The translations under genes were made by a program, and so were the position numbers. Of a stretch of 64,000 nucleotides of DNA, positions 3,396 through 63,846 are shown one piece after another; positions within the stretch are counted from its first letter, which is position 1, and every line of letters starts with the position of its first letter. Origin of the DNA: Deltaproteobacteria bacterium (GTDB taxonomy: Bacteria > Desulfobacterota > GWC2-55-46 > JAJCZF01). The stretch spans positions 31,789-95,788 of the forward strand of contig JAJCZG010000122.1 of assembly GCA_029262475.1 (NCBI GenBank), read 5' to 3'. Below the pieces are notes generated by a model. It was not told the DNA's origin, did not search any database, and saw nothing but the letters and a program-made list of their open reading frames with translations.

Positions 3396-3428
3396 TAGTA
3401 GTAATCTATCCAAGGAAGGAGCTTAAAA

Positions 3429-5965: not shown

Positions 5966-6016
5966 CGGTGTGCCGTAAAGGCGCTTAACGAGTAACAGAT
6001 ATCAACAAGGAAAGAT

Positions 6017-7009: not shown

Positions 7010-7013
7010 AACC

Positions 7014-7397: not shown

Positions 7398-7444
7398 ATT
7401 CGAGGGCTGCGTGAGCGGCGTTTCGTTAAGGATGGATACGAGTT

Positions 7445-8857: not shown

Positions 8858-8859
8858 TT

Positions 8860-9633
8860 ATGTTATTTGAGGCGTTAAATAATATTGAGACATTCTTCTT
8901 CGTCTTTATAAGGATTCTGGCGATATTCCTGCTAATCCCTTTTATCGGTGGCCGCTCGGTGCCGATGCAGCTTAAGCTTGGTATTGTTTTAGTTATAGCC
9001 ATGATAGTGACGCCTACTATACCAATGACTGTGGAGATGCCGCAGAGCTTAGTCGGGCTGGTGGTAGGGGTAGTACGGGAGGTGCTCATAGGGGTGGTGC
9101 TCGGGCTTGTGGTGAATTTCGTCTTTGCCAGCTTCGAAGTGGCAGGGCAGCTTGCAGGCATACAGATGGGTTTCTCGATGGCCAATGTCATCGACCCTCA
9201 GACGAGTGGATCACTCTCCGTCATCGCGCAGTTCTATAATTTCCTTGGTATCTTTCTCTTCTTTACCCTAAATATCCATCTCGTATTCTTTGCGGGGCTA
9301 AAGGAGAGTTTTACTGTAATACCGCCTTACGGATTCACAATCTCCGAGAGTCTATACGACGGGATACTCTCAATGAGCTTCGATGTCTTTAAAGTCGGCC
9401 TTAAGCTTGCCGCCCCTATATCTATCGCCGTGCTCCTTGCGAACCTTGGCATGGGCATCATTGCGAGGACTGTTCCGCAGCTAAATATCTTTGTAGTGGG
9501 CTTCCCGGTGACGATCACTCTGGGGCTTATAATACTGGCCTTTTCGCTGCCTTTCCTCGTTTCGACGATAAGCGAAGTCTTCTCGGGGCTCTCGGGTAAT
9601 ATTATAGGTATTGTAAGGTTCGCTAATGGCTAG
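8860..9633 (+). CDS. fliR: Flagellar export apparatus protein FliR
   Basis: 257-aa polytopic membrane protein after fliQ and before flhB. Confidence 0.85.
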   Translation: MLFEALNNIETFFFVFIRILAIFLLIPFIGGRSVPMQLKLGIVLVIAMIVTPTIPMTVEMPQSLVGLVVGVVREVLIGVVLGLVVNFVFASFEVAGQLAGIQMGFSMANVIDPQTSGSLSVIAQFYNFLGIFLFFTLNIHLVFFAGLKESFTVIPPYGFTISESLYDGILSMSFDVFKVGLKLAAPISIAVLLANLGMGIIARTVPQLNIFVVGFPVTITLGLIILAFSLPFLVSTISEVFSGLSGNIIGIVRFANG

Positions 9634-34650: not shown

Positions 34651-34890
34651 ATGCTTGTATTGACAAGGAAGTCGGGACAAGGCATCTGGATTGGTGACGA
34701 TGTACGCGTAGTTGTGCTCGATGTGAAGGAAGGCCACGTAAGGCTTGGAATCGAGGCTTCGAGAACCACACCTATACATAGAGACGAAGTATATCAACGC
34801 ATTCAGGAGCAGAATAGAAGGAGTGCGGCAATGGTGCCGGCGAATCTTTTTGCCAATATTGGCAATATTAAAACGACGATAAAAAAATGA
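34651..34890 (+). CDS. csrA: Carbon storage regulator CsrA (RNA-binding translational repressor)
   Basis: MLVLTRKSGQGIWIGDDVRVVVLDVKEGHVRLGIEASRTTPIHRDEV is a CsrA signature. Confidence 0.92.
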   Translation: MLVLTRKSGQGIWIGDDVRVVVLDVKEGHVRLGIEASRTTPIHRDEVYQRIQEQNRRSAAMVPANLFANIGNIKTTIKK

Positions 34891-35384
34891 CCGATATGAT
34901 TAAAATAAAGACTTCCCGCTTTGGTGATATAGAGATTGCCGGGGATAAGGTAATCACTTTCCCCAATGCCATACCGGGCTTTGCTGGGCTAAAACGCTTT
35001 GTCTTGCTGGATCACGACGCCGAGGGTCTCTTCAAGTGGCTTCAGTCCGTCGATGACCCCGATCTTGCCTTCCTGCTCTCTCCGCCCAACTACTTTAAGG
35101 CCGAGTTCCGGCTCCCGGAGAAGGCCTATCCCATAACAAGGATAGACGTAAAGTCCCCGGATGAAGTGGTTGTGATGACGATGGTATGCGTTCCGCAAGA
35201 CGACAGCAGCCATTTTACGTTGAATTTTAAGGGGCCGATTGTATTTAACTACTCAAATATGATGGCTATACAGTATATTGTAGATACCGATGACCCTGAG
35301 TACCCGTGCGATTTCAGGGTGGATATCGTCAAAAGCGGGCAGGATGCAAATACCGGCTCCAGGAGCGCCACCGAAGAGCGCTGA
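34887..35384 (+). CDS. fliW: Flagellar assembly factor FliW (CsrA antagonist that binds flagellin)
   Basis: FliW motif (FGDIEIAGDKVITFPNAIPGFAGLKRFVLL). It overlaps the csrA stop codon. Confidence 0.88.
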   Translation: MTDMIKIKTSRFGDIEIAGDKVITFPNAIPGFAGLKRFVLLDHDAEGLFKWLQSVDDPDLAFLLSPPNYFKAEFRLPEKAYPITRIDVKSPDEVVVMTMVCVPQDDSSHFTLNFKGPIVFNYSNMMAIQYIVDTDDPEYPCDFRVDIVKSGQDANTGSRSATEER

Positions 35385-35390
35385 CACCAC

Positions 35391-35422
35391 GCTCCGGCTT
35401 CCTTGCCGGAGCGTTTGCCTTC
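35391..35422 (+). terminator. Possible weak terminator hairpin after fliW
   Basis: GCTCCGGC-ttccttg-CCGGAGC stem-loop followed by GTTTGCCTTCT. The U-tract is imperfect. Confidence 0.35.
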
Positions 35423-35437: not shown

Positions 35438-35453
35438 CGGCACACTCCTTGCA
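35438..35453 (+). promoter_or_regulatory. Sigma54-type promoter upstream of pseB: cGGCAC-ACTCC-TTGCA
   Basis: GG and GC elements at the exact -24/-12 spacing (GGCAC-N5-TTGCA), about 90 nt upstream of the pseB ATG. Confidence 0.55.
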
Positions 35454-35543
35454 TTAATATAAATATTATTGTAAATTTCATTATAATAAGCTCGAGGCCA
35501 TCTATAGAGCCCGAGGCTTGTTAGTGGGGGGAGAGCTTTTAAT

Positions 35544-36527
35544 ATGGATCTTAACGGCAAGACAATACTCGTCACGGGCGGCACCGGTTCTTTTGGAAAG
35601 TTCTTTATAAAGAGCGTGCTTGAGAGGTTTTCCCCCAAACGACTTATCGTATTTAGCAGAGACGAGCTAAAACAGTTCGAGATGCAGCAGGAGTTTACAG
35701 ACCCGTCTCTTCGCTTTTTTATCGGGGACGTGAGGGATAAGGACAGACTCTACAGGGCATTCGACGGCGTAGATTACATAATCCACGCCGCAGCGCTTAA
35801 ACAGGTACCAGCCGCAGAATATAACCCATTCGAATTCATAAAGACCAATGTAATGGGGGCTCAGAATATCATCGACGTCGCCATAGATCTCGGCGTAAAG
35901 AAGGTGGTGGCTCTAAGCACCGATAAGGCCTGTAACCCCGCCAATCTCTACGGGGCGACTAAACTCTGTTCCGACAAGCTTTTTATCTCCGGCAACTCCT
36001 ATTCCGGAGAGAGTGGCGCGCGTTTTAGTGTAGTAAGATACGGAAACGTTGCCGGGAGCCGGGGAAGCGTGATACCCTTTTTCATGAAGATGAAGGAGAC
36101 GGGCATTCTCCCGATTACGGACGAACGCATGACGCGCTTCTGGATAACTCTTGAGGAGAGCGTAAACCTCGTCCTTCTGGCTATGGAGAAGATGTCGGGC
36201 GGCGAGATATTCGTCCCAAAAATTCCTTCTTCCACGGTCTTGGATATCGCCAAGGCGGTAAGCCCTGAGTCGAAGGTGGAGGTCGTAGGCATACGCCCTG
36301 GTGAAAAGCTCCACGAATCCCTCATCTCAACCGAGGAGGGAAGGATGACCTTCGAGTACGACGACTACTACATAATCCGCCCGAACTTTCCGTGGTGGAC
36401 CCTTAACGACCGATGTAAAGGCGGGCGCGAGGTAGATAAGGATTTTGTATATTCCAGCGACACAAATAGTAATTGGCTCTCCGTAGAAGATTTGCGCGAG
36501 ATGATTACAAAGGTAGCCTGTGGCTGA
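35544..36527 (+). CDS. pseB: UDP-GlcNAc 4,6-dehydratase (inverting) PseB/FlaA1
   Basis: N-terminus MDLNGKTILVTGGTGSFGKFFIKSVLERFSPKRLIVFSRDELKQ, and conservation throughout, typical of PseB. Confidence 0.9.
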   Translation: MDLNGKTILVTGGTGSFGKFFIKSVLERFSPKRLIVFSRDELKQFEMQQEFTDPSLRFFIGDVRDKDRLYRAFDGVDYIIHAAALKQVPAAEYNPFEFIKTNVMGAQNIIDVAIDLGVKKVVALSTDKACNPANLYGATKLCSDKLFISGNSYSGESGARFSVVRYGNVAGSRGSVIPFFMKMKETGILPITDERMTRFWITLEESVNLVLLAMEKMSGGEIFVPKIPSSTVLDIAKAVSPESKVEVVGIRPGEKLHESLISTEEGRMTFEYDDYYIIRPNFPWWTLNDRCKGGREVDKDFVYSSDTNSNWLSVEDLREMITKVACG

Positions 36528-37752
36528 TAAGAAGATATCATACGGACGGCAGTCGATAGACGAAACTGATATAGCCGCTGTAGCGAACTCGCTCTCATCC
36601 GACTTCCTTACGCAGGGCTCGGTTCAGGGGGAGTTCGAAGCGGCACTTGGCGAATATACAGGCGCAAAATACGCCGTTGTATGTTCATCGGGCAGCGCCG
36701 CTCTTCATCTCGCATATATGGCAGCCGGCCTTGGCGAGGGAGACGCGATAGTTACAACACCCAACACCTTTCTCGCAACACCCAATGCCGCTATACTTGC
36801 CGGTGCAAGACCTTTCTTTTCAGACATAGACCCGGAGACTCTAAATCTCTCGCTCGACCTTCTTGAAGACAATATCCCACGCTTACTAAAGAACGGAAGG
36901 TCGGTTAAGGCCGTAGTGCCGGTGCACTTCGCAGGTAATCCCGTGGATATGGAACGCCTCTCCGCAATTGCCGAAAAATTCGGCTTAATAGTAATCGAAG
37001 ACGCATGCCACGCCCTTGGAGCCGTATATTCCGGCACTAACGGCTCATCGGTTAAGGTCGGCTCGTCGAGAGACTCCGATATGACGGTATTTAGCTTCCA
37101 CCCCGTAAAATCCATTACAACGGGAGAAGGCGGGGCGATAACGACAAATAACCGCGACCTCTACGAAAGGCTTAAATGGCTCCGGTCGCACGGGGTTATA
37201 AGGGAGGCAGGTGAGTTCAAGTACGAGGATATCGCATCTTCGTCAACGACCCCGCCGCCCTGGTACCATGAGATGCATGAGCTTGGCCTTAATTACAGGT
37301 TAACCGACTTTCAGTGTGCCCTCGGGCTTAGCCAATTAAAGAAGCTCGACGGTTTTATCGGTAGAAGGGCGGAGATAAGCGAACTTTACGATACTTTATT
37401 TCGTTTTAGCGCCCCTATTACCCCGCCGCCGCGTCTGGTAAGGGGCACATCATCGCACCACCTCTATGTCATCCAAATCCCATTTGAAGAGATAGGCGTA
37501 GATAAGACCTTATGGTTTAACGATATGGCAGCCAGGGGGATAAACCTCCAGGTGCATTATATACCGGTTCACCTGCAGCCATACTACAGGGAGAGCTTCG
37601 GTTATGAGCCGGGCGACTTCCCGGCGGCTGAAAATTATTATAAACACGCGGTAAGTCTGCCGATATATCCTTCTCTTACCGATGAGGAGGTAGAAGAGAT
37701 TGCGCTTACAATTAAAAAAAGTTTAGGTATAGAGCCTTTCAGTAACTCATGA
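36520..37752 (+). CDS. pseC: DegT/DnrJ/EryC1-family PLP aminotransferase (PseC-like, for a UDP-4-keto-6-deoxy sugar)
   Basis: Family motifs (GRQSIDETDIAAV, FLTQG, a PLP-Lys region near SFHPVKSITTGEGG) and its position after pseB. Confidence 0.8.
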   Translation: MADKKISYGRQSIDETDIAAVANSLSSDFLTQGSVQGEFEAALGEYTGAKYAVVCSSGSAALHLAYMAAGLGEGDAIVTTPNTFLATPNAAILAGARPFFSDIDPETLNLSLDLLEDNIPRLLKNGRSVKAVVPVHFAGNPVDMERLSAIAEKFGLIVIEDACHALGAVYSGTNGSSVKVGSSRDSDMTVFSFHPVKSITTGEGGAITTNNRDLYERLKWLRSHGVIREAGEFKYEDIASSSTTPPPWYHEMHELGLNYRLTDFQCALGLSQLKKLDGFIGRRAEISELYDTLFRFSAPITPPPRLVRGTSSHHLYVIQIPFEEIGVDKTLWFNDMAARGINLQVHYIPVHLQPYYRESFGYEPGDFPAAENYYKHAVSLPIYPSLTDEEVEEIALTIKKSLGIEPFSNS

Positions 37753-38813
37753 AAAAGACCGCCATTATAGGTGTCGGAAGGGTAGCGGCACTCCTCGAAG
37801 ACGACAAGCTTCGTGAGAAACCGGCTACGCATATGGGCGCATACCTTGATTCTCCGGATTTTGAAGTCGTTGCCGCCGCTGATATCGACGCGGCGAGGCT
37901 TGCTACATTTGGAAAGCGCTACGGAATAAATAAACTCTATACCGATTATAGAGAGATGTTAAAGGAAGTAAGACCAGAGGTCGTGAGTATAGCCGCCTAC
38001 GCAACGGAACGCGCCGAGATGCTAAAGGCCGCGATACTTTCGGGCGTAAAGGGAATATGGTGCGAAAAGGCATTTGCCACATCCTTAGAGGAGGCCGACG
38101 AGATAGTAGCCCTTGCAAAAGAGCACGGGACGGTCATAACAGTATCTCATATGAGGCGCTGGAGCGCCGAACACATATTGGTCAAGGAACTCCTGGGTAG
38201 CGGAGCCATCGGGAGGCTCACTTCCATTTCAGCGTATTTCAGCGGAAGCCTCCTCCATACCGGCACTCACGCCTTCGACGTCCTCAGGTGGTTTGCCGGG
38301 GACGCATTATGGGTCGAGGGCTCGCTTGAGGGAGCCCCTGAGAGGTCAACCGAAGGCGATGAACCAGAGGAGAAAGACTTTTTGTGGTCTTTAGCTGGCG
38401 ACCCCGGCGGGCGCGCGGTTATTAGCTTCAAGGACGGTGTCTACGCCACTGTTCACGCGGAGTCTAAAAGCTATCTTCTCTTTGAATTCGACCTTATCGG
38501 CACCGAAGGCAGGATAAGGATAGGAAATAACGACGTACTTGAACTCTATACCCAGGGTGAAAGCCGCCATTACGAGGGAATAAGGGAACTGAGCCTTAGA
38601 GATTTTCCCGAGTTTAATAAAGCAAATATTTGGAGAGGTGCGGCGCGAAACCTCTCCGAGACAATCGACGGGCAGGCGACCAATATGAACCCGCCAGAGG
38701 ACGGGCGCGCGGCCCTGGAGCTGGCGCTGGCCATACATTTTTCTTCGTCTCTGGGAGGCCAAAGGGTACAACTGCCCCTTAAAGACCGATCCATTAAGGT
38801 CAACAGCAGATAA
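37749..38813 (+). CDS. Gfo/Idh/MocA-family NAD(P)-dependent oxidoreductase
   Basis: N-terminal Rossmann (KTAIIGVGRVAALLED) and a family C-terminal alpha/beta domain. The last roughly 14 codons lie inside tandem-repeat copy 1. Confidence 0.7.
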   Translation: MKKTAIIGVGRVAALLEDDKLREKPATHMGAYLDSPDFEVVAAADIDAARLATFGKRYGINKLYTDYREMLKEVRPEVVSIAAYATERAEMLKAAILSGVKGIWCEKAFATSLEEADEIVALAKEHGTVITVSHMRRWSAEHILVKELLGSGAIGRLTSISAYFSGSLLHTGTHAFDVLRWFAGDALWVEGSLEGAPERSTEGDEPEEKDFLWSLAGDPGGRAVISFKDGVYATVHAESKSYLLFEFDLIGTEGRIRIGNNDVLELYTQGESRHYEGIRELSLRDFPEFNKANIWRGAARNLSETIDGQATNMNPPEDGRAALELALAIHFSSSLGGQRVQLPLKDRSIKVNSR

Positions 38814-48720: not shown

Positions 48721-49651
48721 CATTTCCCTTAGAGAGGCTTTTGGCAGAGCTCTTGTAAAGGCCGGTGAGGAGCGAGAGGATTTTGTCGTCTTCGACGCCG
48801 ACGTCGCGGGAGGCACCTGCACCAATTTCTTTCGTGAGGCCTTTCCTGACAGGTTCTTTCAGTGCGGAATAGCAGAGCAAAATATGTTCTCTCTCGCGGC
48901 AGGGTTCTCGACTATGGGAATTACGCCCGTAGTTACCGCCTACGGAGTATTCGCGGCAATGCGCGCGATAGAGCAGGCGAGAAATTCCATAGCATACCCG
49001 AACTTTAACGTAAAGATAGTGGCAAGCCATTTAGGTTTGGACACCGGCCCGGACGGCCCGACGCACCAGTCGATGGAGGATATCGCCATATACCGTTCGA
49101 TAGCGAATTTTACGGTTCTGGCCCCCGGAGACCCGGTTGAGATGCCCGGCGCGGTAAGCGCGATGCTAAATCACAAAGGCCCTCTCTATATGAGGACAGG
49201 CAGGAGCCCTGTGCCGTCGGTCCTGGGCGGGGACGAGAGATTTGAGATCGGTAAGGGTAAGATAGTAAGAGCGGGCACCGATGTAGCGATTATCGCTACC
49301 GGCGTTATGCTCCACAGGGCCTACGGAGCGGCCACCATATTAGGTGAAGAGGGGATAGACGCGATGGTGGTCAATATGAGCTCGATTAAGCCCATAGACA
49401 GGGCGCTTATAATCGAGTGTGCCGAAAAGACAGGTGCGGTTGTTACGGCAGAGGACCATAACAGGTTCGGCGGGCTCGGGTCGGCCGTGGCAGAGATTTT
49501 AGCCGAGACCCTTCCGACCCCGATGAGAATGGTGGCGATAGACGACACCTTCGCAGAATCAGGCGAGCCTGCTCTGCTCGCCGAAAAATACGGAATATCA
49601 ATAGAAGATATAAGGCGCATGGCCAAAGAGGTGATAGATGCAAAGGCTTAA
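48713..49651 (+). CDS. Transketolase, C-terminal subunit
   Basis: FQCGIAEQNMFSLAAGFS...GPTHQSMEDIAIYRSI (transketolase pyrimidine-binding / C-terminal domains). Confidence 0.85.
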   Translation: MNDISLREAFGRALVKAGEEREDFVVFDADVAGGTCTNFFREAFPDRFFQCGIAEQNMFSLAAGFSTMGITPVVTAYGVFAAMRAIEQARNSIAYPNFNVKIVASHLGLDTGPDGPTHQSMEDIAIYRSIANFTVLAPGDPVEMPGAVSAMLNHKGPLYMRTGRSPVPSVLGGDERFEIGKGKIVRAGTDVAIIATGVMLHRAYGAATILGEEGIDAMVVNMSSIKPIDRALIIECAEKTGAVVTAEDHNRFGGLGSAVAEILAETLPTPMRMVAIDDTFAESGEPALLAEKYGISIEDIRRMAKEVIDAKA

Positions 49652-50372
49652 AGGTAAAGTTGCAGTCGTAACGGGAGCGAGCCGGGGCATAGGGTCAGGT
49701 ATTGCCAGAGCTTTTGCCAAAGAAGGCGCGTTAGTTGCCGTCTGTTACAACGAGGGCGTTAAAGGTGCTGATGCCGTAGTAAGTGAAATAGAAGCGTTAG
49801 GCGTCAAGGCCATCTCTGTAAGTCTCCCGGTTGAAGACCGAGGCGCTATAAAAAAAGCATTTAAAGAGATTACTTTCGAGCTTGGTCAGATAGATATACT
49901 CGTAAATAACGCAGGCATTAATATCCCAAACGACTTCGATAAAATTACAGACGCCGACTGGGAGAGGGTTTTGGGCGTTAACCTCACCGGCCCTTTCAAG
50001 GTGACGCAGGTTGCACTGCCGCATTTCACCGACGGCGGTTCCATAATAAATATATCTTCGGTGAGCGGACAGTACGGTGGGCCGAGAACGACCCACTACT
50101 GCGTATCAAAGGCCGGGCTTATTGCGCTTACTCAAAACCTGGCGATATTTTGCGCTAAAAGAAATATCCGCGTAAACGCAATCTCCCCGGGGCTTATCGC
50201 TTCGGATATGGCAGGGGCCGCCACCGGCCTCGGACTGGAAGAAAAGATACTTTTAAAAAAGATGGGCGAATATAAGGACGTAGCAGGAGCGGCGGTCTTT
50301 CTCGCATCCGATGAGTCGTCATACATTACCGGCCATACGCTAAATGTAAACGGAGGGCTTTATATTGGCTAA
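49638..50372 (+). CDS. Short-chain dehydrogenase/reductase (FabG-like SDR)
   Basis: TGASRGIGSGIA cofactor motif. NNAG. YxxxK catalytic motif (YCVSK). Confidence 0.85.
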   Translation: MQRLKGKVAVVTGASRGIGSGIARAFAKEGALVAVCYNEGVKGADAVVSEIEALGVKAISVSLPVEDRGAIKKAFKEITFELGQIDILVNNAGINIPNDFDKITDADWERVLGVNLTGPFKVTQVALPHFTDGGSIINISSVSGQYGGPRTTHYCVSKAGLIALTQNLAIFCAKRNIRVNAISPGLIASDMAGAATGLGLEEKILLKKMGEYKDVAGAAVFLASDESSYITGHTLNVNGGLYIG

Positions 50373-51591
50373 GGTCCTCATAATAATCGGCGCCGGCATT
50401 GAACAGGTGAGGGCCTATGAGGTCGCTAAAGCGATGGGCCTTAAGGTCGTTGGTACGGATATAAACCCCGACGCACCGGCATTTGAGTACGCCGACGGAG
50501 CTATAATCGCTAGTACAAGGGACCACGGCGAGACACTAAAGGCCGTTATAAATTATTTTTTCGAGAATAAGGATGACAAGGTAACAGGCGTCATGACTAT
50601 CGCTAACGACGTGCCGATGACGGTCGCGACAGTCGCCGAACACTTCGACCTGCCGGGGCTTCTCACAGACTCGGCTATCATTGCGTCGGATAAATTCCTT
50701 ATGAAGGAGAGCTTTAAATTCGACGGTGTTAAGACTTCAAAATTTTCCGAGGTCTCTTGCCATATCGAAATAATTGACGCTGCTGAGGCGTGGGGCTGGC
50801 CACTTGTGATAAAGCCCGTTGACGGACGAGGGGCGAGGGGGGTTTTATTAATAGACGAGTCTACCGACCTTAAATGGGCTTACAACGAGAGCCTCTCGTT
50901 TTCGACCGTCAAGCGCGTCATGGTTGAGAGCTTTCTCTCCGGGCCGCAGATAAGCACCGAGTCGATGATGATCGGCGGCAAGTGTTATACCCCGGCATAT
51001 TCCGATAGGAATTACAGCCGCCTCGATGAATTTATCCCGTACATGATAGAGGACGGAGGCACTATGCCAGCCCTCCTCTCCGAGGAAGAGAGAAGAGCCA
51101 TAAACGCCCTCGTCGAGAGCGGCGCTCTTGCAATGGGCATAACCGACGGCATAGTAAAGGGCGACATAGTCTTAACCGAAAAGGGGCCTGCGATAATAGA
51201 GCTTGCCGCAAGGCTTAGCGGAGGCTACTTCGCAACAGACCAGATACCGCTATCAACCGGCGTTGACATGGTTAGTGCAGCGGTTAAATATGCCGTGGGT
51301 GAGCCGTTAAAACCGGAGGATTTCACGCCTCTTTACTCAAGGGGCGCAGCTATTCGGTTCTTCTTTCCTCCCGAGGGAGTAATTGATGAAATTAAGGGAG
51401 CTAGGGAGCTCTCATCCATGCCGGGCGTACGAAGATCATCACTCTACCGGGCCGAGGGAGACGAGCAGCCGCAGGTCCGCGCCCACCCGGACAGGGCCGG
51501 TTTTGTGATAGCCGACGGTGTGGACCGCGGGGAAGCGCTTCAACGGGTCGAAGCTGCAATTGACTCCGTCATCTTCAAGGTAAAGCGTTAG
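50365..51591 (+). CDS. ATP-grasp domain ligase
   Basis: ATP-grasp fold motifs (WPLVIKPVDGRGARGVLLI). Pre-ATP-grasp N-domain. Confidence 0.7.
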   Translation: MAKVLIIIGAGIEQVRAYEVAKAMGLKVVGTDINPDAPAFEYADGAIIASTRDHGETLKAVINYFFENKDDKVTGVMTIANDVPMTVATVAEHFDLPGLLTDSAIIASDKFLMKESFKFDGVKTSKFSEVSCHIEIIDAAEAWGWPLVIKPVDGRGARGVLLIDESTDLKWAYNESLSFSTVKRVMVESFLSGPQISTESMMIGGKCYTPAYSDRNYSRLDEFIPYMIEDGGTMPALLSEEERRAINALVESGALAMGITDGIVKGDIVLTEKGPAIIELAARLSGGYFATDQIPLSTGVDMVSAAVKYAVGEPLKPEDFTPLYSRGAAIRFFFPPEGVIDEIKGARELSSMPGVRRSSLYRAEGDEQPQVRAHPDRAGFVIADGVDRGEALQRVEAAIDSVIFKVKR

Positions 51592-51602
51592 GCGCGCCTT
51601 AT

Positions 51603-53636
51603 ATGCCGATACTTAAACTCTACACACTCTTTCATCTAAACCTCGCCTTCTCTTCTATAGCCAGAGACGATTACGCTCGTCTTATCCGGGACGCTTACAC
51701 CCCGATACTCGACCTTGCTGAGCGTGGCACGCCCGTAGGAGTAGAGGCGACCGCCTGCACCCTGAGCGAAATAAAAAGAATTGACGAAGGTTTTATCGAG
51801 CGCCTTTCCTCATTATGTAACGACGGCAGGGCCGAATTCATAGGCTCGGGCCTTAGCCAGCTCATAATGCCGCTCGCCCCTGTCGAGGTGAACCGATGGA
51901 ACCTTGCGGCAGCGAACAAATACTATAGAGAGTTCCTCGGAACTACGCCGAAGACAGCACTTGTGAACGAACAGACATTCTCCGGCGCCCTGGTGGATCT
52001 CTACCTGGAGGCAGGTTATGAAACGCTCGTTATGGACTGGAATAACTCGGCCCGTTATAACTCATATCCAAAAGAGTACCTCTATTACCCGCAGAGGAGT
52101 GCTGGAAGGACGGGTGAGATTAACCTCCTCTGGAGCCACTCGATAGCCTTTCAGAAGTTTCAAAGATATATACACGGTATAATCACACTTGACGAGTATC
52201 TCGAATTCATAGAGTCGCAGAAGGGAGCGGCCGAGCTCGCCGCCTCCGATGGGTCGGTTCCAGGCTTCCCTCTCTACGGTAATGACGCCGAGGTCTTCGA
52301 CTTCAGGCCGGGCGGCGACGCACGCACCAGTTCTCTCGGTGAATGGGATAAGATAGCCGACCTCTACGAGATATTTAAGCGTGACGAGAGCGTCGAACTG
52401 GTGCTCCCCTCCGAATTTGTAAATAGTGTGATCTCATCACCAGGCCCCTCGGCCCTTAATACCGTAAGGCTTACTTCCCCCGAGACTCCGCTCCCGTGTA
52501 AGAAACAGAATAAATATAACCCCACCAGGTGGGCCGTGACGGGCAGAGATAGCGTCCATGTAAATACCCAGTGCTATAAGGCCCTCGGTAACATCCTGAA
52601 GCTCGAAGCCTCTATAAGTGACGAAGCCGCCGAAGCGCTACGCGAAAAACTATGCCTCCTCTGGGGAAGTGATTTTAGAACCAATACAACGGACGAAAAG
52701 CTCCGTGAGTTCCAAAACTCAATGGGGTGGCTCATGGTAGAGACCGAAAGGCTTCTGGCCTCTAATGTTAGCTCCAGAGAGGGCAACGCAGGGGCGGGCT
52801 CCACCGGTGCCGTAGCTAATGGTAAAGACTTCGCCAAGGCGAAGATAGAAACTGATAAGAAGATACTCTCCGTTGAGTGCCCCGGTATACGCGCTGAATT
52901 CCTCCTTACTAAAGGGCTCTCGATAAAATCGCTTACATTCCCGGAGTTAACGGATAAGCCTGTAATCGGAACACTCCCCCACGGTTACTTTGACGACATA
53001 CACCTCGGGGCAGACTTCTTTAGCGGGCACTTCATAAATGTCCAGCGCGACGGGCGTAAGGTTACAGACCTCTCTACAGTAGAGCCAGGTATCCATGACG
53101 GGCCGGAGAGCGTAACGATCTCTGCGGCTATACCGATGGAGACGGGTAATCTATTAAAGACATTTACGCTTCATAAGGGCAAACCTCGTCTTGAAATAAA
53201 TTACAGGCTTAAGCTCGACGGGCTGGCCGCGTCAAGTCTTAGGCTCGCAATACTATCATTTTTCCCTACGGCCTTTAATAAGGAAAGTCTCTGGTACGAG
53301 TCCGTAAACGGCGGCGATGAGCCGGAGAGGTTCTACCTGCTGGGCAAGAGCGTTAAACACGACGAAGCGGTTAGCTCTACCGTAAGCGCATCTAGCTGCC
53401 TTGGCGCTACCGACGGCTCCGTCGTGATCGGTGACGATGATATTGCTGTGAGGATATCGAGCGACAGGTCAGAGCTCTTTTCGGCACCGTTATTGCATTA
53501 TTTTGAGACAGACGACAAGTATTTTCTACGCCTCTCGCATTCTATCGGCGAAGTCGACGACACGGCCTTCTGGGTCTGGAGGGGTATTAACACTATAGGT
53601 TTTACGATAGAACCAGTACTGAAGAGTGATAAGTGA
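51603..53636 (+). CDS. Large hypothetical protein with a GH57-like (glycoside hydrolase family 57 / DUF1957-type) N-terminal domain
   Basis: N-terminal LFHLNLAFSSI...NEQTF...EAGYETLVMDWNNS resembles the GH57 (beta/alpha)7 barrel region. No other motifs recognised. Confidence 0.3.
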   Translation: MPILKLYTLFHLNLAFSSIARDDYARLIRDAYTPILDLAERGTPVGVEATACTLSEIKRIDEGFIERLSSLCNDGRAEFIGSGLSQLIMPLAPVEVNRWNLAAANKYYREFLGTTPKTALVNEQTFSGALVDLYLEAGYETLVMDWNNSARYNSYPKEYLYYPQRSAGRTGEINLLWSHSIAFQKFQRYIHGIITLDEYLEFIESQKGAAELAASDGSVPGFPLYGNDAEVFDFRPGGDARTSSLGEWDKIADLYEIFKRDESVELVLPSEFVNSVISSPGPSALNTVRLTSPETPLPCKKQNKYNPTRWAVTGRDSVHVNTQCYKALGNILKLEASISDEAAEALREKLCLLWGSDFRTNTTDEKLREFQNSMGWLMVETERLLASNVSSREGNAGAGSTGAVANGKDFAKAKIETDKKILSVECPGIRAEFLLTKGLSIKSLTFPELTDKPVIGTLPHGYFDDIHLGADFFSGHFINVQRDGRKVTDLSTVEPGIHDGPESVTISAAIPMETGNLLKTFTLHKGKPRLEINYRLKLDGLAASSLRLAILSFFPTAFNKESLWYESVNGGDEPERFYLLGKSVKHDEAVSSTVSASSCLGATDGSVVIGDDDIAVRISSDRSELFSAPLLHYFETDDKYFLRLSHSIGEVDDTAFWVWRGINTIGFTIEPVLKSDK

Positions 53637-55549
53637 CTGAAATATTTAATAAAAACATAAAAGCTTTAAGGAAGAAGAACCCGGCACTTGCCGAGCTCCT
53701 CTCAACCGTTGATGCAGAAGAGATTGTAGTTGAGGAAGCAAAGGCAGGGGAGAAGACCTTTACCTTCAAGGGCAAGTATTTTCATAGCCGCTATGACCCT
53801 GTTACCGAGGCCAAGCGGAGCGTCGAGCTCATTATGAAGAAGAAGCGCGACTGGATCCTGGTCTTTGGTCTCGGTTTCGGGTATGTGCCAAGTCTGCTCC
53901 TCGAAGAAGAGATCTATTCCGTTATGATCTATGAGCCAAGCCCGGGTCTCCTGCGCTCGATACTGGAGTCCGTAGATATGACCGGCCTTATAAGATCAGC
54001 CTCGGTTAAGTTTACTACGAGCCTGGATGATGTTAGAAAACTGGTGGACCAGAAGACCGACGGAGTTGAGGACATAGTCCAGTTCCAGACCGCGCCGTAT
54101 AAGAATACATTCGAAAAGGAGTTCATGGACTTCGCCTTTACGGTAAATAACGCCTACTCCAAGAGGAGGCTAAATATCAATACGCTCGTCTATTCTTCAA
54201 AGAGCTGGCTGGAGAATTATCTTGAGAATGTGTCGTCTCTTATCGAGAGTCCGACGATAGACGTCTTGAAGGATCAATTCGCAGGCTTGCCGACATTAAT
54301 AGTAGGCGCGGGGCCGTCCCTTGAGAAGAACGCTCACCTCATAAAAGAGGTAAAGGGCAAGGCCCTCATTGTCGCCGCTATCTCGGCGTATCGCCCTCTT
54401 TTGAAGTTCGGCGTAGTGCCGGACCTTGTGATATCGGCCGAGAAGGTCGCCCTCTCGACATTTTTCGCCAATGGTAAGGAGGACGAAGAGGTACGCCTCC
54501 TCCTGGCCGAGGTATCTAATCCGACCCTCTATACGGAGAGGAAGGTGAGGGAGAGGTATACTTATTTCTGCACCTATAACACCCTCTCCCGCGAGCACGC
54601 GGCCTTTTGGGGGAGCAGTTACTTTCCGGGCGGGAGCGGCAGCGTATCGACTACCGCACTCGATATAGCCCTCTATGCGGGCGCAAGCCCGGTTATACTC
54701 CTTGGTCAAGACCTCTCTTATTCAAACAATAAGACGCATGTTACAGGGAGCGTCTACGGAGAGCAAAAGCTGGAGTTCGGAAGAAACGGCGTTAATATTA
54801 AGGAGCAGGAGGTATATACCGCAGAGCCTATCGAAAGAAAAGGCGACCTCCTCTGGGTTGACGGTATGGACGGGAAGCTGATCCCGAGCTGCGCGGCCTG
54901 GGTAACGGTCCTTCAGTGGTTCGAAGATTACAGTGAGAGAATTAGTGGACAGGAGAATCCTCCGGTTCTTATAAATTCCTCCGAAGGCGCGGCGGCTATA
55001 AAGGGTTATGAGAATATGCCCTTCTCCGCAGTCATAGAAAAGTATTTTAATAATAGCGACGAGCGCACTGAAAGCAGTGCCGTGGAGGAGGCGTTCCGAA
55101 GGGTTGATAACACCTCCGTTGATGTCGATTGGCAGGCCCTCTACAACTCCTTTGATATCTTCTTTGTTTCACTCGGGAAGATCGAAAAGATCGCCGACCA
55201 AATAGTTAGTAAGGCTAAAAAGCTAAGGAAAACTATAGAATCGTCGGGGCTTTCGCCGGAGCTCCTTAGCGCGACAAGAAAGATAAGGGGCCTTGAGAAG
55301 AAGCTCTTCAAGATTGTAAAGGACGCCCTCTTCCTCCTTGAAGCCCTGGCGGCCCTGGACCATGCCCTGAAGCTCCAGCAGAAGAATGAAGAGCTAATTG
55401 AGGACGATAAGGAGCAGGCGTTAAAAGATTTAAAACACGTTATTCAGACCTACAGCGTAGTTGCCGTTAACGCCAGACACTTCATAAAACTTATAAAAGA
55501 GGCGAGAAGAAGCACCGAAGAGAAGCTTAAGGGCGTCGCCGCGATTTAA
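53633..55549 (+). CDS. maf: Motility accessory factor (Maf, DUF115/MptE-like): a putative flagellin nonulosonic-acid glycosyltransferase
   Basis: Maf-type N-terminus (IFNKNIKALRKKNPALAELL). Central DUF115 motif (LIVGAGPSL...VPDLVISAEK). The size (about 640 aa) and position next to pse genes and flagellin also fit. Confidence 0.75.
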   Translation: MTEIFNKNIKALRKKNPALAELLSTVDAEEIVVEEAKAGEKTFTFKGKYFHSRYDPVTEAKRSVELIMKKKRDWILVFGLGFGYVPSLLLEEEIYSVMIYEPSPGLLRSILESVDMTGLIRSASVKFTTSLDDVRKLVDQKTDGVEDIVQFQTAPYKNTFEKEFMDFAFTVNNAYSKRRLNINTLVYSSKSWLENYLENVSSLIESPTIDVLKDQFAGLPTLIVGAGPSLEKNAHLIKEVKGKALIVAAISAYRPLLKFGVVPDLVISAEKVALSTFFANGKEDEEVRLLLAEVSNPTLYTERKVRERYTYFCTYNTLSREHAAFWGSSYFPGGSGSVSTTALDIALYAGASPVILLGQDLSYSNNKTHVTGSVYGEQKLEFGRNGVNIKEQEVYTAEPIERKGDLLWVDGMDGKLIPSCAAWVTVLQWFEDYSERISGQENPPVLINSSEGAAAIKGYENMPFSAVIEKYFNNSDERTESSAVEEAFRRVDNTSVDVDWQALYNSFDIFFVSLGKIEKIADQIVSKAKKLRKTIESSGLSPELLSATRKIRGLEKKLFKIVKDALFLLEALAALDHALKLQQKNEELIEDDKEQALKDLKHVIQTYSVVAVNARHFIKLIKEARRSTEEKLKGVAAI

Positions 55550-55588
55550 TTTCTTTTAAAAAATGTAAACTCTGGAGATAGAGCTTAA

Positions 55589-56212
55589 ATGACGCAGATA
55601 TTTTTAAACCACGTAAAAGTCGATTTTGAGATAGAAGGCGACGATACCGATGTCGGCTCATGCATAAAGGCGTTCGAAGACGAGCTTAACTCGTGCGCTC
55701 ATATCATTACAAGCATTTGCGTTGACGGCGAGGAGGTTACTGACTGGAGAGAAAAACCCTTCCAGTCAAAACTCCTGGTAGAGGTAAACGAGCTTAAAAT
55801 ACTTGCCTCAACGCGTGAAGAGCTAGTTTTGGTAGGCTTCGGGTCGTGTCTGCAATTGATACATTTTATATGTAGCGACTTGAATCTGGCGCTTAACAGG
55901 TACAGAGACGAGGAGTACGGTGAAGCCACCGAGGCGCTCTCAAGGGCACTGAACTCCTCACATGACTTAATGAAGACCTACGACGCCATTTCGGTCAATA
56001 TCCGTCTTTCGGTGACCCCACCCGGCTTCACCGGTCTCGTCGAGAGCCTCGAAACCCTAGTCGGCATTTTTGAAGATACAAAGGCAGCCCTGGACTCCGG
56101 TGACGTTATCGCCATAACCGACCTTATTGAATATGAGGCCATTCCCCTAGTAGAGCTTGTAGGAGAAGAGCTCACCCTCCTCTCCAATAAAGGAGATTCT
56201 CTGAAAGATTAA
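55589..56212 (+). CDS. Hypothetical protein (207 aa) between maf and flagellin
   Basis: ORF with a good ribosome-binding site (GGAGATAGAG) and no recognisable motif. Confidence 0.4.
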   Translation: MTQIFLNHVKVDFEIEGDDTDVGSCIKAFEDELNSCAHIITSICVDGEEVTDWREKPFQSKLLVEVNELKILASTREELVLVGFGSCLQLIHFICSDLNLALNRYRDEEYGEATEALSRALNSSHDLMKTYDAISVNIRLSVTPPGFTGLVESLETLVGIFEDTKAALDSGDVIAITDLIEYEAIPLVELVGEELTLLSNKGDSLKD

Positions 56213-56220: not shown

Positions 56221-56248
56221 TAAAGTTTAACCTCAATCTACCGATAAA
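56221..56248 (+). promoter_or_regulatory. Sigma28 promoter of flagellin gene 1: TAAAGTTT-N-aCCGATAA
   Basis: TAAA-N15-ACCGATAA, the same sequence type as the cheW promoter, 180 nt upstream of the flagellin ATG. Confidence 0.65.
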
Positions 56249-56428: not shown

Positions 56429-57256
56429 ATGGGACTCGTAATCAACACCAATATAGCATCACTTATTGCCCAGCAAAATCTTAATATATCCAATAAGCAG
56501 TTAAAACTGAGCGTACAGAGACTTAGCTCCGGCTACAGGGTCAACAGCGCGGCCGATGACGCCGCCGGTATGGCGAGGGCAAGCCTGTTACGCTCCAATT
56601 CGCGTGGAATTCAAGCCGCATTAAGGAATTCCAATGACGGTATAAGTGCGCTCGAAATAGCCGATCAGAGCTCGGCTAAGATCGGCGACATCCTTACGAG
56701 GATGAACGAGCTTGCCGTCAGCGCCTCACAGGGCACACTCGATACCGAGACGAGGGGATACTACCACCTTGAGTGGGCTGAGCTTGTTAAGGAGATAGAC
56801 CGAATAGCCAATGTTACCGAATTCGACGGTAAAAAGTTGCTAGCTTCGGGTATCACTGTTGATATCCAGATCGGTTTCAGAAGCTCCGCAGACGACAGGC
56901 TCACGATGACAATGGGAAAGATGATTGCCAGCACTCTCGGCCTTAACGCCACAGCAGCCGGCCTGAGCGCTCTAACAAGAGCACAGTCCGCAATGGGGCT
57001 GATAAAGACAGCCATAAAGAGCATCAACGGAACACGCGCCAGATTCGGTGCGTTTACTAACAGGCTCGACGCGACCATCTCCAACCTGCAGGTTACATTC
57101 ACCAATATTCAGGCGGCTGAAAGTAGGATAAGAGATGCTGACTTCGCGCACGAGACAGCGCTATTTACCAAGAATCAGATACTGGTACAGTCGGGAGTCT
57201 CCGTCTTGGCACAGGCCAATACGCTTCCGCAGGCTGCGCTGACACTGCTACAATAG
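56429..57256 (+). CDS. fliC: Flagellin (short, about 275 aa, D0/D1 only)
   Basis: MGLVINTNIASLIAQQNLNISNKQLKLSVQRLSSGYRVNSAADDAAGMA...C-terminal LVQSGVSVLAQANTLPQAALTLLQ. Confidence 0.95.
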   Translation: MGLVINTNIASLIAQQNLNISNKQLKLSVQRLSSGYRVNSAADDAAGMARASLLRSNSRGIQAALRNSNDGISALEIADQSSAKIGDILTRMNELAVSASQGTLDTETRGYYHLEWAELVKEIDRIANVTEFDGKKLLASGITVDIQIGFRSSADDRLTMTMGKMIASTLGLNATAAGLSALTRAQSAMGLIKTAIKSINGTRARFGAFTNRLDATISNLQVTFTNIQAAESRIRDADFAHETALFTKNQILVQSGVSVLAQANTLPQAALTLLQ

Positions 57257-60361: not shown

Positions 60362-60388
60362 AAGTTAACTATGGAAGGAGAAATTACT

Positions 60389-61216
60389 ATGGGAGTAGTA
60401 ATCAATACCAACGTAGCATCACTAGTAGCACAGAATAACCTTTTTACAAATAACAAGGCACTAGCAGTAAACGTACAAAGACTCTCTTCAGGTTACAGGG
60501 TCAACAGCTCCGCAGATGACGCCTCAGGGCTTGCCAGGGCCGATCAGCTCAGGGCCAGCTCCAGAGGTGTACAGGCAGCACTCCGGAACGCAAACGACGG
60601 TATAAGCGCCCTTGAGATAGCCGATAAGAGCGCCCAGAAGATAAGCGAACTCCTCACGAGGATGTCTGAGCTTGCCGTTACCGCGTCTCAGGGTACTCTC
60701 GATACGAACTCCAGAACTTATATCCAGGACGAGTTCTCAAACCTGAGGGACGAAATATCTCGAATAGCCGAGGTTACCGAGTTCGATGGTAAAAAGCTTC
60801 TCGCCTCCGGTATCTCGATTAATATTCAGGTCGGGTTTAGAAACAACGCCAACAACCGAATGACTGTGACCATGGGTAATTTGAAGACTACCAATCTCGG
60901 TATCCAGGCATCTAAAGCATCTGTTGCCGCTCTGACAGGTGCGCAGAGAGCTATCAGCGTCATCGGTGCTGCTCTTACTACGCTTAATTCACAGAGAGCG
61001 CGTTTCGGTTCGTACACCAACAGGCTGGATGCGACGATATCCAACCTGCAGGTAACGTACACGAACTTCCAGGCCGCCGAAAGTAGAATCAGGGACCTGG
61101 ATTTTGCTCAAGAGACGGCTTCATTTACCAGGAACCAGATACTCGTTCAATCGGGTGTGTCTGTCCTGGCGCAGGCTAATACCCTGCCTCAGTCGGCCCT
61201 TTCGCTCATCGGTTAG
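60389..61216 (+). CDS. fliC: Flagellin paralogue 2 (start at MGVVINTN; the ORF track starts 18 nt earlier)
   Basis: MGVVINTNVASLVAQNNL...QRLSSGYRVNSSADDASGLARA...C-terminal LVQSGVSVLAQANTLPQSALSLIG. Confidence 0.92.
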   Translation: MGVVINTNVASLVAQNNLFTNNKALAVNVQRLSSGYRVNSSADDASGLARADQLRASSRGVQAALRNANDGISALEIADKSAQKISELLTRMSELAVTASQGTLDTNSRTYIQDEFSNLRDEISRIAEVTEFDGKKLLASGISINIQVGFRNNANNRMTVTMGNLKTTNLGIQASKASVAALTGAQRAISVIGAALTTLNSQRARFGSYTNRLDATISNLQVTYTNFQAAESRIRDLDFAQETASFTRNQILVQSGVSVLAQANTLPQSALSLIG

Positions 61217-62040: not shown

Positions 62041-62961
62041 TTGAAAGGAGCAGTAAAAATGAAAAGAATTCTCACCGTAGCCCTTGGTCTTGGTCTCGTA
62101 TTCGGCGTTGCAGCCACATCCAACGCATTATCCCCGTCTGACTTCCCGGCTGACGTAGCCGCCGGTGGTATTGCGGGTTCACGTCATAACCTTGGCGCAT
62201 ACGGCGTCCATTTCAGGGCAGACAACAGTGACGGTAACGGCGGAACGACTGAAATTTGTGTATTCTGTCATACTCCTCACCACGGCGCAAGCCACGCCCC
62301 GTTATGGGCAAAGGGCACACAGTCAACGACCTACACCGCATACGGCACGACCGTAGCCGGTACCTTCGTTGCCGATAGCGACATAGGTGCAGCCACACTC
62401 GCCTGTCTAAGCTGTCACGATGGTGTCAACACCATTGATACCCTCGTAAACGCACCAGGTAAGGGTAACGACGGATCGAACAACACCAACAAGGTTGATT
62501 TTAACTGGACCTTCACCGAGGACAGTAACACCGTATCCGATATCATCGGCTCCACCAGGCTCAATATCGGTACGGACCTCACCAATGACCATCCGGTATC
62601 CGTATCCTACGAGATTAACAAGGCCTCGCTAAGGCCAACCAGTACATTGCTCTCAGACCTTCATATGACTTCGACTGGCTTCACCGCAGGCGATAATAAT
62701 GAGGGCGATTCCGCTACGACCACCGCGAACAGGTGGGCTGTAAAGGGTTACATCAACACTGGCGCCACGATTGGCGATCTCCTCAGGACCACCGCCAACA
62801 GGGTTGAGTGCTCATCGTGCCATGATCCGCACTTCAGCAACAAGACCTGGGACGAAGTTGAGTCCACCTGGGGCGGCGAAGCTGACGGCGACGGCATGTT
62901 CCTTAGAAGAGTCGGCGGTAACAGCGTATCCGGTGTTTGCAGGTCCTGCCACAACAAGTAA
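62041..62961 (+). CDS. Secreted tetraheme c-type cytochrome (four CxxCH motifs)
   Basis: Signal peptide (MKRILTVALGLGLVFGVAATSNA). CVFCH, CLSCH, CSSCH and CRSCH motifs, consistent with the Geobacter-type doubled paired-CXXCH family. Confidence 0.8.
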   Translation: MKGAVKMKRILTVALGLGLVFGVAATSNALSPSDFPADVAAGGIAGSRHNLGAYGVHFRADNSDGNGGTTEICVFCHTPHHGASHAPLWAKGTQSTTYTAYGTTVAGTFVADSDIGAATLACLSCHDGVNTIDTLVNAPGKGNDGSNNTNKVDFNWTFTEDSNTVSDIIGSTRLNIGTDLTNDHPVSVSYEINKASLRPTSTLLSDLHMTSTGFTAGDNNEGDSATTTANRWAVKGYINTGATIGDLLRTTANRVECSSCHDPHFSNKTWDEVESTWGGEADGDGMFLRRVGGNSVSGVCRSCHNK

Positions 62962-63270: not shown

Positions 63271-63846
63271 ATGGAGAAAAAATTTATTTACGGCGTGGAA
63301 GAGACATTCCCCAATCAGAGAGAAGACTTCCGTATTGACGATACTCTTCCGCTCATTTATTCACCGTTAGGTGAGACTTCCCGCAATGTAGAACGCTCCT
63401 CTATTCACGACATCACCCCGATTCTCAGGAAGCTTAAACAGCGCAAGATGGACTCCGAGCTTCTCCTTCTAATTAAACTCTTCGACGAAAAACTGAACCA
63501 TATCATAAAGCAAACCTCCGGTGGCGAGGGTAGTGTCTATCTCCCGGGAGAAACCCCTTTACCAACAGACATTAATATCAGCGCCGGAGGCATCTGTTTT
63601 AGAAGTAAGGAATGCTTTAAGCCCGGTGAGGTCTTGAACCTGGTTATCGGGCTTCCGCCGCAGCCGTATACCCATATAAATATTTTAGGTGAGGTGTTAA
63701 GGTCCACTGAGCTCGAGGGCGTTGCTGAAGAGGATAAGAAGTTCAGAGTAGCGCTCAAATTTGTTCACATGGAAGATGAAGAGAGACAGGATATAACGAA
63801 ATACCTCTTCGATGTGCAGAGGAAGAGGGTAAGGTCCGGCAAATAG
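63271..63846 (+). CDS. PilZ-domain (c-di-GMP-binding) protein
   Basis: RxxxR (QREDFRID) and DxSxGG (DINISAGGICF) motifs, plus a PilZ-like C-terminal beta-barrel segment (FRVALKFVHMEDEERQDITKYLF). The spacing between the motifs is longer than canonical. Confidence 0.5.
   Translation: MEKKFIYGVEETFPNQREDFRIDDTLPLIYSPLGETSRNVERSSIHDITPILRKLKQRKMDSELLLLIKLFDEKLNHIIKQTSGGEGSVYLPGETPLPTDINISAGGICFRSKECFKPGEVLNLVIGLPPQPYTHINILGEVLRSTELEGVAEEDKKFRVALKFVHMEDEERQDITKYLFDVQRKRVRSGK

Follow-up and report, generated by a model that had tools for sequence, protein, structure and literature searches.

Flagellin nonulosonate glycans are required for filament assembly in several bacteria and affect surface charge as well as phage and immune recognition; to our knowledge, the chemistry of their non-acetyl substituents has been solved in very few species and their biosynthesis in none. 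Here we ask which glycan is made by a block of genes that lies between fliW and the flagellin genes in a 64,000-nt stretch of DNA from a 'Deltaproteobacteria' bacterium (contig JAJCZG010000122.1 of assembly GCA_029262475.1, forward strand positions 31,789 to 95,788; hereafter, the window). According to an open reading frame (ORF) listing and to Pfam and NCBIfam scans, the block comprises 19 co-directional genes on the + strand (35544-56212), with gaps of -94 to +170 nt between them and frequent overlaps of stop and start codons. As the gaps are short and so many stop and start codons overlap, the block is most likely a single operon. We suggest, at a probability of roughly 55%, that this operon directs the synthesis of a cytidine monophosphate (CMP)-activated, pseudaminic acid (Pse)-type 5,7-diamino nonulosonic acid with a decorated, non-acetyl N-acyl group, and that this sugar is put on serine/threonine residues of two short flagellins. 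The original prediction, made from the DNA sequence alone, had described a flagellin glycosylation island with a Pse-type nonulosonate core, a Maf transferase and an unusually rich tailoring set. Family annotation of every ORF located each of the families that it had named where it had placed them, and the island, its core and its transferase are borne out by the family scans and by the flanking fliW and flagellin genes. Its gene list had passed over a GFO/IDH/MocA oxidoreductase, a 207-aa protein and the lack of PseH, the last of which is the key to the likely site of the acyl unit.

Equivalogs were called at the NCBIfam cut-offs and families with Pfam. Of the Pse pathway, PseB and PseC alone reach the equivalog cut-offs. 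The synthase falls below the models for both NeuB (338 bits, cut-off 399.65) and PseI (297.5 bits, cut-off 340.25), the cytidylyltransferase gives weak equivalog matches only, to KdsB and PseF (26.9 bits for PseF, cut-off 205.7), and the PseG-like protein also stays below its threshold (see the table). No PseH was found, as neither a GNAT nor an LbH acetyltransferase domain was detected by the Pfam and NCBIfam scans in any of the 19 products. The GFO/IDH/MocA oxidoreductase stands outside the canonical Pse pathway; its gene directly follows pseC, as it also does in three related loci (L002, L004 and L087).

At the level of protein families, PseB and PseC would yield UDP-4-amino-4,6-dideoxy-L-AltNAc, the PseG-like hydrolase, the NeuB-family synthase and the cytidylyltransferase would complete and activate the nine-carbon acid, and Maf would move the sugar to flagellin, possibly aided by the 207-aa four-helix-bundle protein. 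Because no PseH is encoded in the island, we infer that the ATP-grasp ligase acts in its place and acylates the amine introduced by PseC, i.e. the future N7. The acid to be ligated could be drawn from central sugar-phosphate metabolites by C2 ketol transfer, mediated by the split transketolase, and ketone reduction, mediated by the short-chain dehydrogenase/reductase (SDR). Hydroxyl groups of the acyl unit would then be available for O-methylation by two S-adenosylmethionine (SAM)-dependent methyltransferases, MT1 and MT2, and for O-sulfation by a sulfotransferase of the 3'-phosphoadenosine-5'-phosphosulfate (PAPS) type. In this lineage, a pair of radical SAM enzymes with B12-binding domains may in addition C-methylate unactivated carbons or deoxygenate them in an AprD4-like manner. 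More speculatively, the acyl unit could be a C4 trihydroxy-acid, assembled from glyoxylate and a C2 ketol unit with subsequent ketoreduction, whose three hydroxyls would correspond exactly to the capping enzymes available, two methyltransferases and one sulfotransferase.

The arrangement of the island is not due to chance, given that the same gene order is found in a relative (GCA_029262495.1; L002) and that over 100 further loci contain parts of it. Protein identities to this relative amount to 79-93% for the products of the biosynthetic and tailoring genes; Maf is conserved at 80% and the 207-aa protein at 70%. A second relative (GCA_029262535.1; L004) bears a minimal island in the order pseB-pseC-GFO-neuB-cytidylyltransferase-pseG-like-ATP-grasp-GH57-Maf-207-aa protein-flagellin, from which the other tailoring genes are missing; retention of the ligase even in this island speaks for the acylation scheme outlined above.

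Most of the tailoring genes belong to a conserved module. A block in the order MT1-sulfotransferase-MT2-transketolase N subunit-transketolase C subunit-SDR-ATP-grasp-GH57 was present in all four sulfotransferase contexts examined, in the neighbourhood of pseB/pseC, neuB, cytidylyltransferase and flagellar genes. The module is carried by a hydrothermal-vent 'Deltaproteobacteria' metagenome-assembled genome (MAG), by Ca. Nitronereus thalassa (Nitrospirota; L088), which adds an adenosine-5'-phosphosulfate (APS) kinase and one 628-aa B12-domain radical SAM enzyme, and by two alphaproteobacterial MAGs (L089, L090), and thus by members of the Alphaproteobacteria, the Nitrospirota and the 'Deltaproteobacteria' (at least three phyla). 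A metagenome scan yielded 389 stretches encoding relatives of the sulfotransferase, and counts were made on the 25 loci with at least 7.5 kb of downstream sequence. MT2 was encoded in 23 of these loci, the transketolase N and C subunits in 22 and 24, the SDR in at least 18, and the ATP-grasp ligase and the GH57-like protein in 23 each; the window's radical SAM pair was found in none. Overall, the module is thus largely intact in 22-24 of the 25 loci. This module of eight genes, the GH57-like gene included and the transketolase subunit genes counted separately, covers seven of the nine tailoring genes of the window; in metagenomes from soil, peat, groundwater and marine habitats, it is common. 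The two radical SAM genes alone are lineage-specific, forming an insertion between the MT2 and transketolase genes. Comparison across genomes thus shows that the tailoring set, which the original prediction had described as unusually rich, is not a one-off.

Two of the carriers show additional features. In the Ca. Nitronereus thalassa locus (8381-9028, 20284-20879), the APS kinase gene lies just upstream of the methyltransferase-sulfotransferase pair, and a BNR_2 (sialidase-like) gene comes last, after the GH57-like gene. In the alphaproteobacterial loci, the module (~1800-8100) has as its neighbours the genes for a tetratricopeptide repeat (TPR) protein of ~505 aa, a FlaEY-like protein of ~950 aa and a fused cytidylyltransferase of ~600 aa. 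These two loci contain no Maf gene within 10 kb, and the transferase may be of the FlmG (TPR) type.

We also surveyed loci from the side of the GH57-like protein. An alignment scan with one genome per species gave 79 loci, whose gene content was assigned by BLASTP comparison with the proteins of the island and a small number of additional references. Of the 61 loci with enough upstream sequence, 46 have an ATP-grasp gene no more than three genes upstream of the GH57-like gene; Maf lies at most four genes downstream of it in 46 of 62 loci. In this survey, the GH57-like protein is thus a near-constant partner of the ligase and of Maf, and the most constant one that the ligase has. An ATP-grasp/GH57 variant is also present in Aquaspirillum serpens DSM 68. 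The slot upstream of the ligase gene is variable. It is occupied by the split transketolase and SDR in seven loci, by a TAL/FSA aldolase in 19 (with two flanking zinc-dependent alcohol dehydrogenase genes in the loci examined), by KduI in 16 (accompanied, where examined, by an SDR) and by an acetolactate-synthase-like (ALS-like) thiamine diphosphate (ThDP) enzyme in four (with an SDR in the three listed, L021, L054 and L060); none of these enzymes was found in the slot in 15 loci. Such a modular slot is expected if alternative carbon skeletons are built for one ligase. The aldolase is a 230-aa enzyme of the transaldolase/fructose-6-phosphate aldolase (TAL/FSA) type (L028, 4420-7246, and 18 other loci) and sits in the position that the transketolase and SDR genes take in the window.

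The same survey bears on the nature of the unit that the ligase transfers. The best match of the ligase in the PDB is 4dim (deposited as phosphoribosylglycinamide synthetase), followed by the L-amino acid ligase 3vot and BacD. Its LAL_C2 domain and its matches to L-amino acid ligases and BacD would fit the transfer of an ordinary amino acid to N7, for which the N-methyl-glutamyl legionaminic acid of Clostridium botulinum provides an example. The methyltransferases, the sulfotransferase and the radical SAM enzymes would then modify either the amino acid or the nonulosonate itself, in the latter case by O4/O8 methylation or sulfation or by C-methylation, and transketolase and SDR would serve precursor supply or recycling. 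A canonical-looking transketolase and a minimal island in which the ligase occurs without any skeleton-building gene (L004) agree with this scheme. However, both transketolase subunit genes and the SDR gene are held directly upstream of the ligase gene in most of the 25 long metagenome loci and across phyla, and sister islands swap other C-C bond enzymes into the same slot, which is hard to explain by precursor supply; we therefore consider this alternative rather unlikely.

Several points weigh against an acyl unit that is built, ligated and decorated as we propose. From its phosphate-binding residues and from the alignment with 6yaj, we take the transketolase to be canonical, and, because it looks canonical, a role purely in precursor supply is possible. 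The product of a transketolase is a ketose rather than an acid, which leaves the source of the carboxylate for the ligase unexplained. The target of the methyltransferases and the sulfotransferase could be the nonulosonate ring instead of the acyl chain, and another part of the genome could encode a PseH. The higher score of the synthase with the NeuB than with the PseI model means that the stereochemistry, Pse or another isomer, is not fixed. Both radical SAM proteins stay under every NCBIfam cut-off, with BchE/HpnJ and Sden_1168 as the best models. Finally, the scheme assigns no step to the GFO and GH57-like proteins, the latter being the main unexplained element of the island. As to the transketolase itself, its C subunit aligns with the characterised split transketolase of C. 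hydrogenoformans (6yaj) at 311 bits over 305 residues, and the motifs REAFG, DGPTHQ and RTGRS are preserved in this alignment. That it is a housekeeping gene appears unlikely given the synteny, though its sequence looks canonical.

The end of the island ties the pathway to the flagellum. The Maf gene is located by the flagellin genes, with fla1 starting 880 nt downstream, and the nearest solved structure to its product is that of Magnetospirillum Maf (5mu5). No other glycosyltransferase, flippase or polymerase was detected among the island products by the Pfam and NCBIfam scans. These observations, the recurrence of Maf near the GH57-like gene and the packing of all genes into one co-directional block that runs from fliW to a sigma-28-type flagellin promoter, with Maf near its end, make it very improbable that the tailoring genes serve another glycoconjugate (lipopolysaccharide, capsule or S-layer) and that flagellin receives a plain nonulosonate. 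The pathway is not intrinsically flagellar, as GH57-like/ATP-grasp/nonulosonate clusters from a Dehalococcoidia (L059) and a Gemmatimonadales locus (L060) contain no flagellar or Maf gene in the retrieved stretch; these clusters favour such a separate destination.

The gene for the 207-aa protein comes after Maf in at least 34 loci, including the minimal island (L004, 13995-14609). Three close homologues of the protein were found, and no more. In an AlphaFold2 model based on a shallow alignment (predicted local distance difference test [pLDDT] 70), a small N-terminal domain precedes a four-helix bundle at the C terminus. Among 25 homologues, D178, E181, Y182 and E183 are invariant, forming a DxxEYE motif, and R106 is nearly so. 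GlfM, a specificity factor beside Shewanella Maf-2, is likewise a predicted four-helix bundle and has conserved residues F24, R25, D77 and E80 (bioRxiv 10.1101/2023.12.03.569772). Based on the shared predicted fold and the DxxE spacing, it is plausible that the 207-aa protein is a GlfM-like specificity factor for Maf or flagellin.

In the sulfotransferase, the motifs SSGRSGT and RxGRKVxxS, which we take to be the 5'-phosphosulfate-binding (5'-PSB) and 3'-phosphate-binding (3'-PB) loops for PAPS, are invariant across 26 homologues. In total, 1487 homologues were found, the best 120 of which are about 50% identical. With this number of homologues and with the same module in all contexts examined, we could rule out that the sulfotransferase is this lineage's own. 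A second family, Sulfotransfer_1, is present in three other, Maf-linked islands (among them L012, 4000-4872, and L069), which suggests repeated, independent recruitment of sulfation. The acylation and sulfation forecast by the original prediction remain reasonable, the PAPS-binding motifs being invariant and an APS kinase being encoded in the Ca. Nitronereus island.

The MT1 gene adjoins the sulfotransferase gene on its upstream side in the conserved module. As listed, its ORF shares 94 nt with the pseG-like gene and exceeds the 304-aa homologue from L002 by 31 aa; because that homologue is shorter, the true start of MT1 is probably located further downstream. For MT2, the zinc ribbon (CxxC...CxxC) and the class-I core on which the original prediction had based a sugar C-methyltransferase-like enzyme are indeed present. 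However, the proposed C-methylation finds no support, since neither Methyltransf_13 nor Methyltransf_14 matched even at E <= 5; the PDB search returned generic methyltransferases only. MT2 could still be a sugar C-methyltransferase of the TylC3/TcaB9 type.

The radical SAM enzymes likewise make the predicted C-methylated glycan uncertain. Both proteins contain a CxxxCxxC cluster motif and an N-terminal B12-binding domain (E 7e-21 and 2e-19), and 22 of the 76 islands surveyed encode relatives of the second enzyme at 27-35% identity. Comparison with NCBIfam and with solved structures places neither protein in a characterised methylase family. The top solved structures are an uncharacterised radical SAM protein (9ccb) and the diol dehydratase AprD4 (6fd2), and the methylases CysS and TokK score lower. 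We thus give appreciable, though clearly less than even, weight to the possibility that the pair does not methylate, and instead carries out an AprD4-like dehydration, amounting to deoxygenation together with the SDR, or another rearrangement of a sugar or acyl chain. AprD4 ranks among the top two solved matches of both proteins, the leading NCBIfam matches BchE and HpnJ are non-methylases, and deoxy positions are present in the Treponema acyl group (PMC13439194) and, by our reading of its formula, in the Shewanella moiety (PMC3765264). The retained B12-binding domains and the further matches to CysS, TokK, PhpK, Sden_1168-type enzymes and the MCR glutamine methylase, on the other hand, favour methylation.

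The GH57-like protein belongs to a family of more than 2000 homologues. An AlphaFold2 model based on 25 homologues (pLDDT 85, predicted template modelling score [pTM] 0.87) shows a (beta/alpha)-barrel that a helical linker joins to a C-terminal beta-sandwich. It matches the GH57 4-alpha-glucanotransferase of T. litoralis (1k1x, Foldseek E 7.5e-23), and GH38 mannosidases score similarly. Residues H11, N13, E123, D228 and E230 are invariant. E123 lines up with the glutamate of the T. litoralis TER motif, which we take to be the catalytic nucleophile (E123), and D228 (in GNDAEVF) was matched to the acid/base position by motif resemblance only. Because these five residues are invariant, the protein looks catalytically competent.

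With the T. litoralis enzyme (1k1w) and the GH38 alpha-mannosidases, the protein shares the (beta/alpha)7 barrel, the helical linker and the C-terminal beta-sandwich as well as a conserved glutamate at the presumed nucleophile position and a DxE motif at the putative acid/base position, but it is only 10-14% identical to them. Its first conserved region reads H-L-N, compared to H-Q-P in GH57 enzymes, and its context is nonulosonate biosynthesis, in contrast to the alpha-glucan metabolism in which GH57 enzymes operate. The conserved nonulosonate neighbours argue for a substrate other than alpha-glucans. A stray glycogen enzyme is ruled out by the proximity to the ATP-grasp gene (46/61) and to Maf (46/62) and by the presence in 23/25 sulfotransferase-anchored loci.

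Taking the module as a whole, we tentatively propose, at somewhat less than even confidence, that the eight-gene block represents a widespread, undescribed pathway for adding a sulfated, methylated polyhydroxy-acyl group to flagellar, and sometimes non-flagellar, nonulosonic acids, in which a GH57/GH38-fold enzyme has a new, non-glucan role and to which radical SAM chemistry was added in the window's lineage. If true, it would be the first case of a sialic-acid-like sugar that is sulfated in bacteria; a sulfated nonulosonate as predicted here is not reported in the literature that we searched. In the open-access literature, we found no work that connects flagellin and pseudaminic acid, or the glycosylation of flagellin, to GH57, to radical SAM enzymes or to a sulfotransferase, and transketolase gave one incidental match. 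The main interest of the locus lies in this conserved, widespread and uncharacterised module with its sulfotransferase and GH57-fold enzyme, rather than in the richness of one island. Its design is modular, combining a constant pair of ligase and GH57-fold protein with exchangeable carbon-skeleton cassettes (transketolase, aldolase, KduI or ALS-like).

The features of the locus are collected in the table below.

Table. Features of the flagellin glycosylation island and its flanks (window coordinates)
Feature	Position	Strand	Assignment and evidence
csrA	34651-34890	+	CsrA-like 79-aa ORF; upstream flagellar boundary
fliW	34887-35384	+	FliW by Pfam and NCBIfam; upstream flagellar boundary
PseB, UDP-GlcNAc 4,6-dehydratase (inverting)	35544-36527	+	TIGR03589, 530.6 bits (cut-off 407.75); Polysacc_synt_2
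PseC aminotransferase	36520-37752	+	TIGR03588, 472.5 bits (cut-off 423.5)
GFO/IDH/MocA NAD(P) oxidoreductase	37749-38813	+	Pfam PF01408, PF22725
NeuB-family nonulosonate synthase with SAF domain	38984-40054	+	PF03102, 285.6 bits
CMP-sugar-type cytidylyltransferase	40041-40859	+	PF02348 CTP_transf_3, 117.6 bits
PseG-like GT-B protein, probable UDP-sugar hydrolase	40943-41926	+	TIGR03590, 89 bits, E 3.8e-25 (cut-off 153.55 not reached)
SAM methyltransferase MT1	41833-42840	+	Methyltransf_23, 85.6 bits
PAPS-type sulfotransferase	42833-43669	+	Sulfotransfer_3 PF13469, 53.5 bits (cut-off 27)
SAM methyltransferase MT2	43710-44948	+	N-terminal Cys4 zinc ribbon (CxxC...CxxC), class-I methyltransferase core, extra C-terminal domain
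B12-binding-domain radical SAM enzyme 1	44960-46402	+	PF02310, PF04055; CSYSCTFC at residue 227
B12-binding-domain radical SAM enzyme 2	46399-47847	+	PF02310, PF04055; CTFDCCFC at residue 248
Split transketolase	47854-49651 (N subunit 47854-48720, C subunit 48713-49651)	+	Transketolase_N, Transket_pyr, Transketolase_C
FabG-like SDR	49638-50372	+	adh_short_C2, 218.7 bits
ATP-grasp carboxylate-amine ligase, L-amino-acid-ligase type	50365-51591	+	LAL_C2 and ATP-grasp Pfam domains
GH57/GH38-fold protein	51603-53636	+	PF03065, 44.5 bits (cut-off 21.2)
Maf (motility accessory factor) flagellin nonulosonate transferase	53633-55549	+	MptE-like PF01973, 119.5 bits; Maf_flag10_N PF20157; PseD-domain model NF050051
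207-aa protein	55589-56212	+	TP0873_N and DUF8042 (precomputed Pfam)
Sigma-28-like promoter	56221-56248	+	Motif TAAAG-N14-ACCGATAA; precedes fla1
Flagellin fla1	56429-57256	+	275 aa; Flagellin_N and Flagellin_C; presumed acceptor
Second flagellin fla2	60371-61216		68% identical to fla1

Upstream of the island, flgK- and flgL-like genes are also present, and fliW is followed by a hairpin (~35389-35416) and an AT-rich stretch that precedes pseB. Downstream, fla1 is followed by flaG, fliD, fliS, a fliT-like gene and then fla2. The GC content is 0.50-0.53 within the island and 0.47-0.49 outside; with this small contrast, no tRNA genes and no clear sign of foreign origin in base composition, a horizontally transferred island could not be recognized on these grounds. 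No riboswitch or other RNA matched Rfam at the gathering thresholds, and a scan for sigma-70 promoters and terminators gave background levels only. Just past the flagellin block (62041-62961) lies the gene for a multihaem cytochrome, a 306-aa protein that looks secreted and has four haem-binding CxxCH motifs; this fits a metal- or sulfur-respiring 'Deltaproteobacteria' host. A 191-aa protein encoded after the flagellin/fliS block (63271-63846) is kept in most related loci (25-52% identity); as its homologues are annotated as PilZ-domain proteins, it may be a flagellar brake that responds to cyclic diguanylate.

How, then, does the island compare with known systems? With the canonical Pse5Ac7Ac/Maf islands of Campylobacter, Helicobacter and Aeromonas (PseB, C, H, G, I and F plus Maf), it shares true PseB and PseC equivalogs, PseG-like, NeuB-family and cytidylyltransferase proteins, Maf and the adjacency to flagellin genes. 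It differs in lacking PseH, in that its PseG, PseI and PseF counterparts do not reach the respective cut-offs, and in having eleven extra genes. In Treponema, short D0/D1 flagellins carry a nonulosonate of Pse configuration whose N-acyl group is a methylated polyhydroxy acid, so N-acylation of nonulosonates by such acids is established. A further link is the 207-aa protein of the window, which bears a domain named for Treponema TP0873; as a difference, no sulfate or C-methyl group is reported for the Treponema glycan.

The closest characterised analogue, by enzyme class only, is the sfmABCDE operon of Shewanella oneidensis MR-1 with Maf (SO_3259) and GlfM (SO_3260). The genes of this operon, which lies beside Maf, specify a protein with a NeuB domain, a ThDP enzyme resembling IlvB, a FabG-like SDR, a SAM-dependent methyltransferase and a ligase of the ATP-grasp type, and the flagellin glycan consists of a 274-Da mono-N-acetyl Pse-like sugar and a large, oxygen-rich 236/250/264-Da moiety, C9-11H16-20O7, that is O-methylated (PMC3765264). 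In common with the window are thus a flagellar-locus operon by Maf, a NeuB-type enzyme, a ThDP enzyme, a FabG-like SDR, a methyltransferase (~395 aa in Shewanella), an ATP-grasp ligase (~412 aa in Shewanella) and a small helical-bundle factor encoded next to Maf. The ThDP enzyme, SDR, methyltransferase and ATP-grasp classes are therefore already genetically linked to such a glycan, and the original prediction is only partly correct in its statement that no characterised Pse or Leg pathway contains the combination: the statement does not hold for these four classes, which are known to occur together by Maf from sfmABCDE. The two systems differ in that SfmB is IlvB/acetolactate-synthase-like, and the window has a split transketolase instead (IlvB-like versions are found in L021, L054 and L060), and in that the window adds the sulfotransferase, a second methyltransferase, two B12-domain radical SAM enzymes, the GFO oxidoreductase and the GH57-fold protein. 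Our survey supplies candidate genes for the outer moieties of both the Shewanella and the Treponema flagellin glycans.

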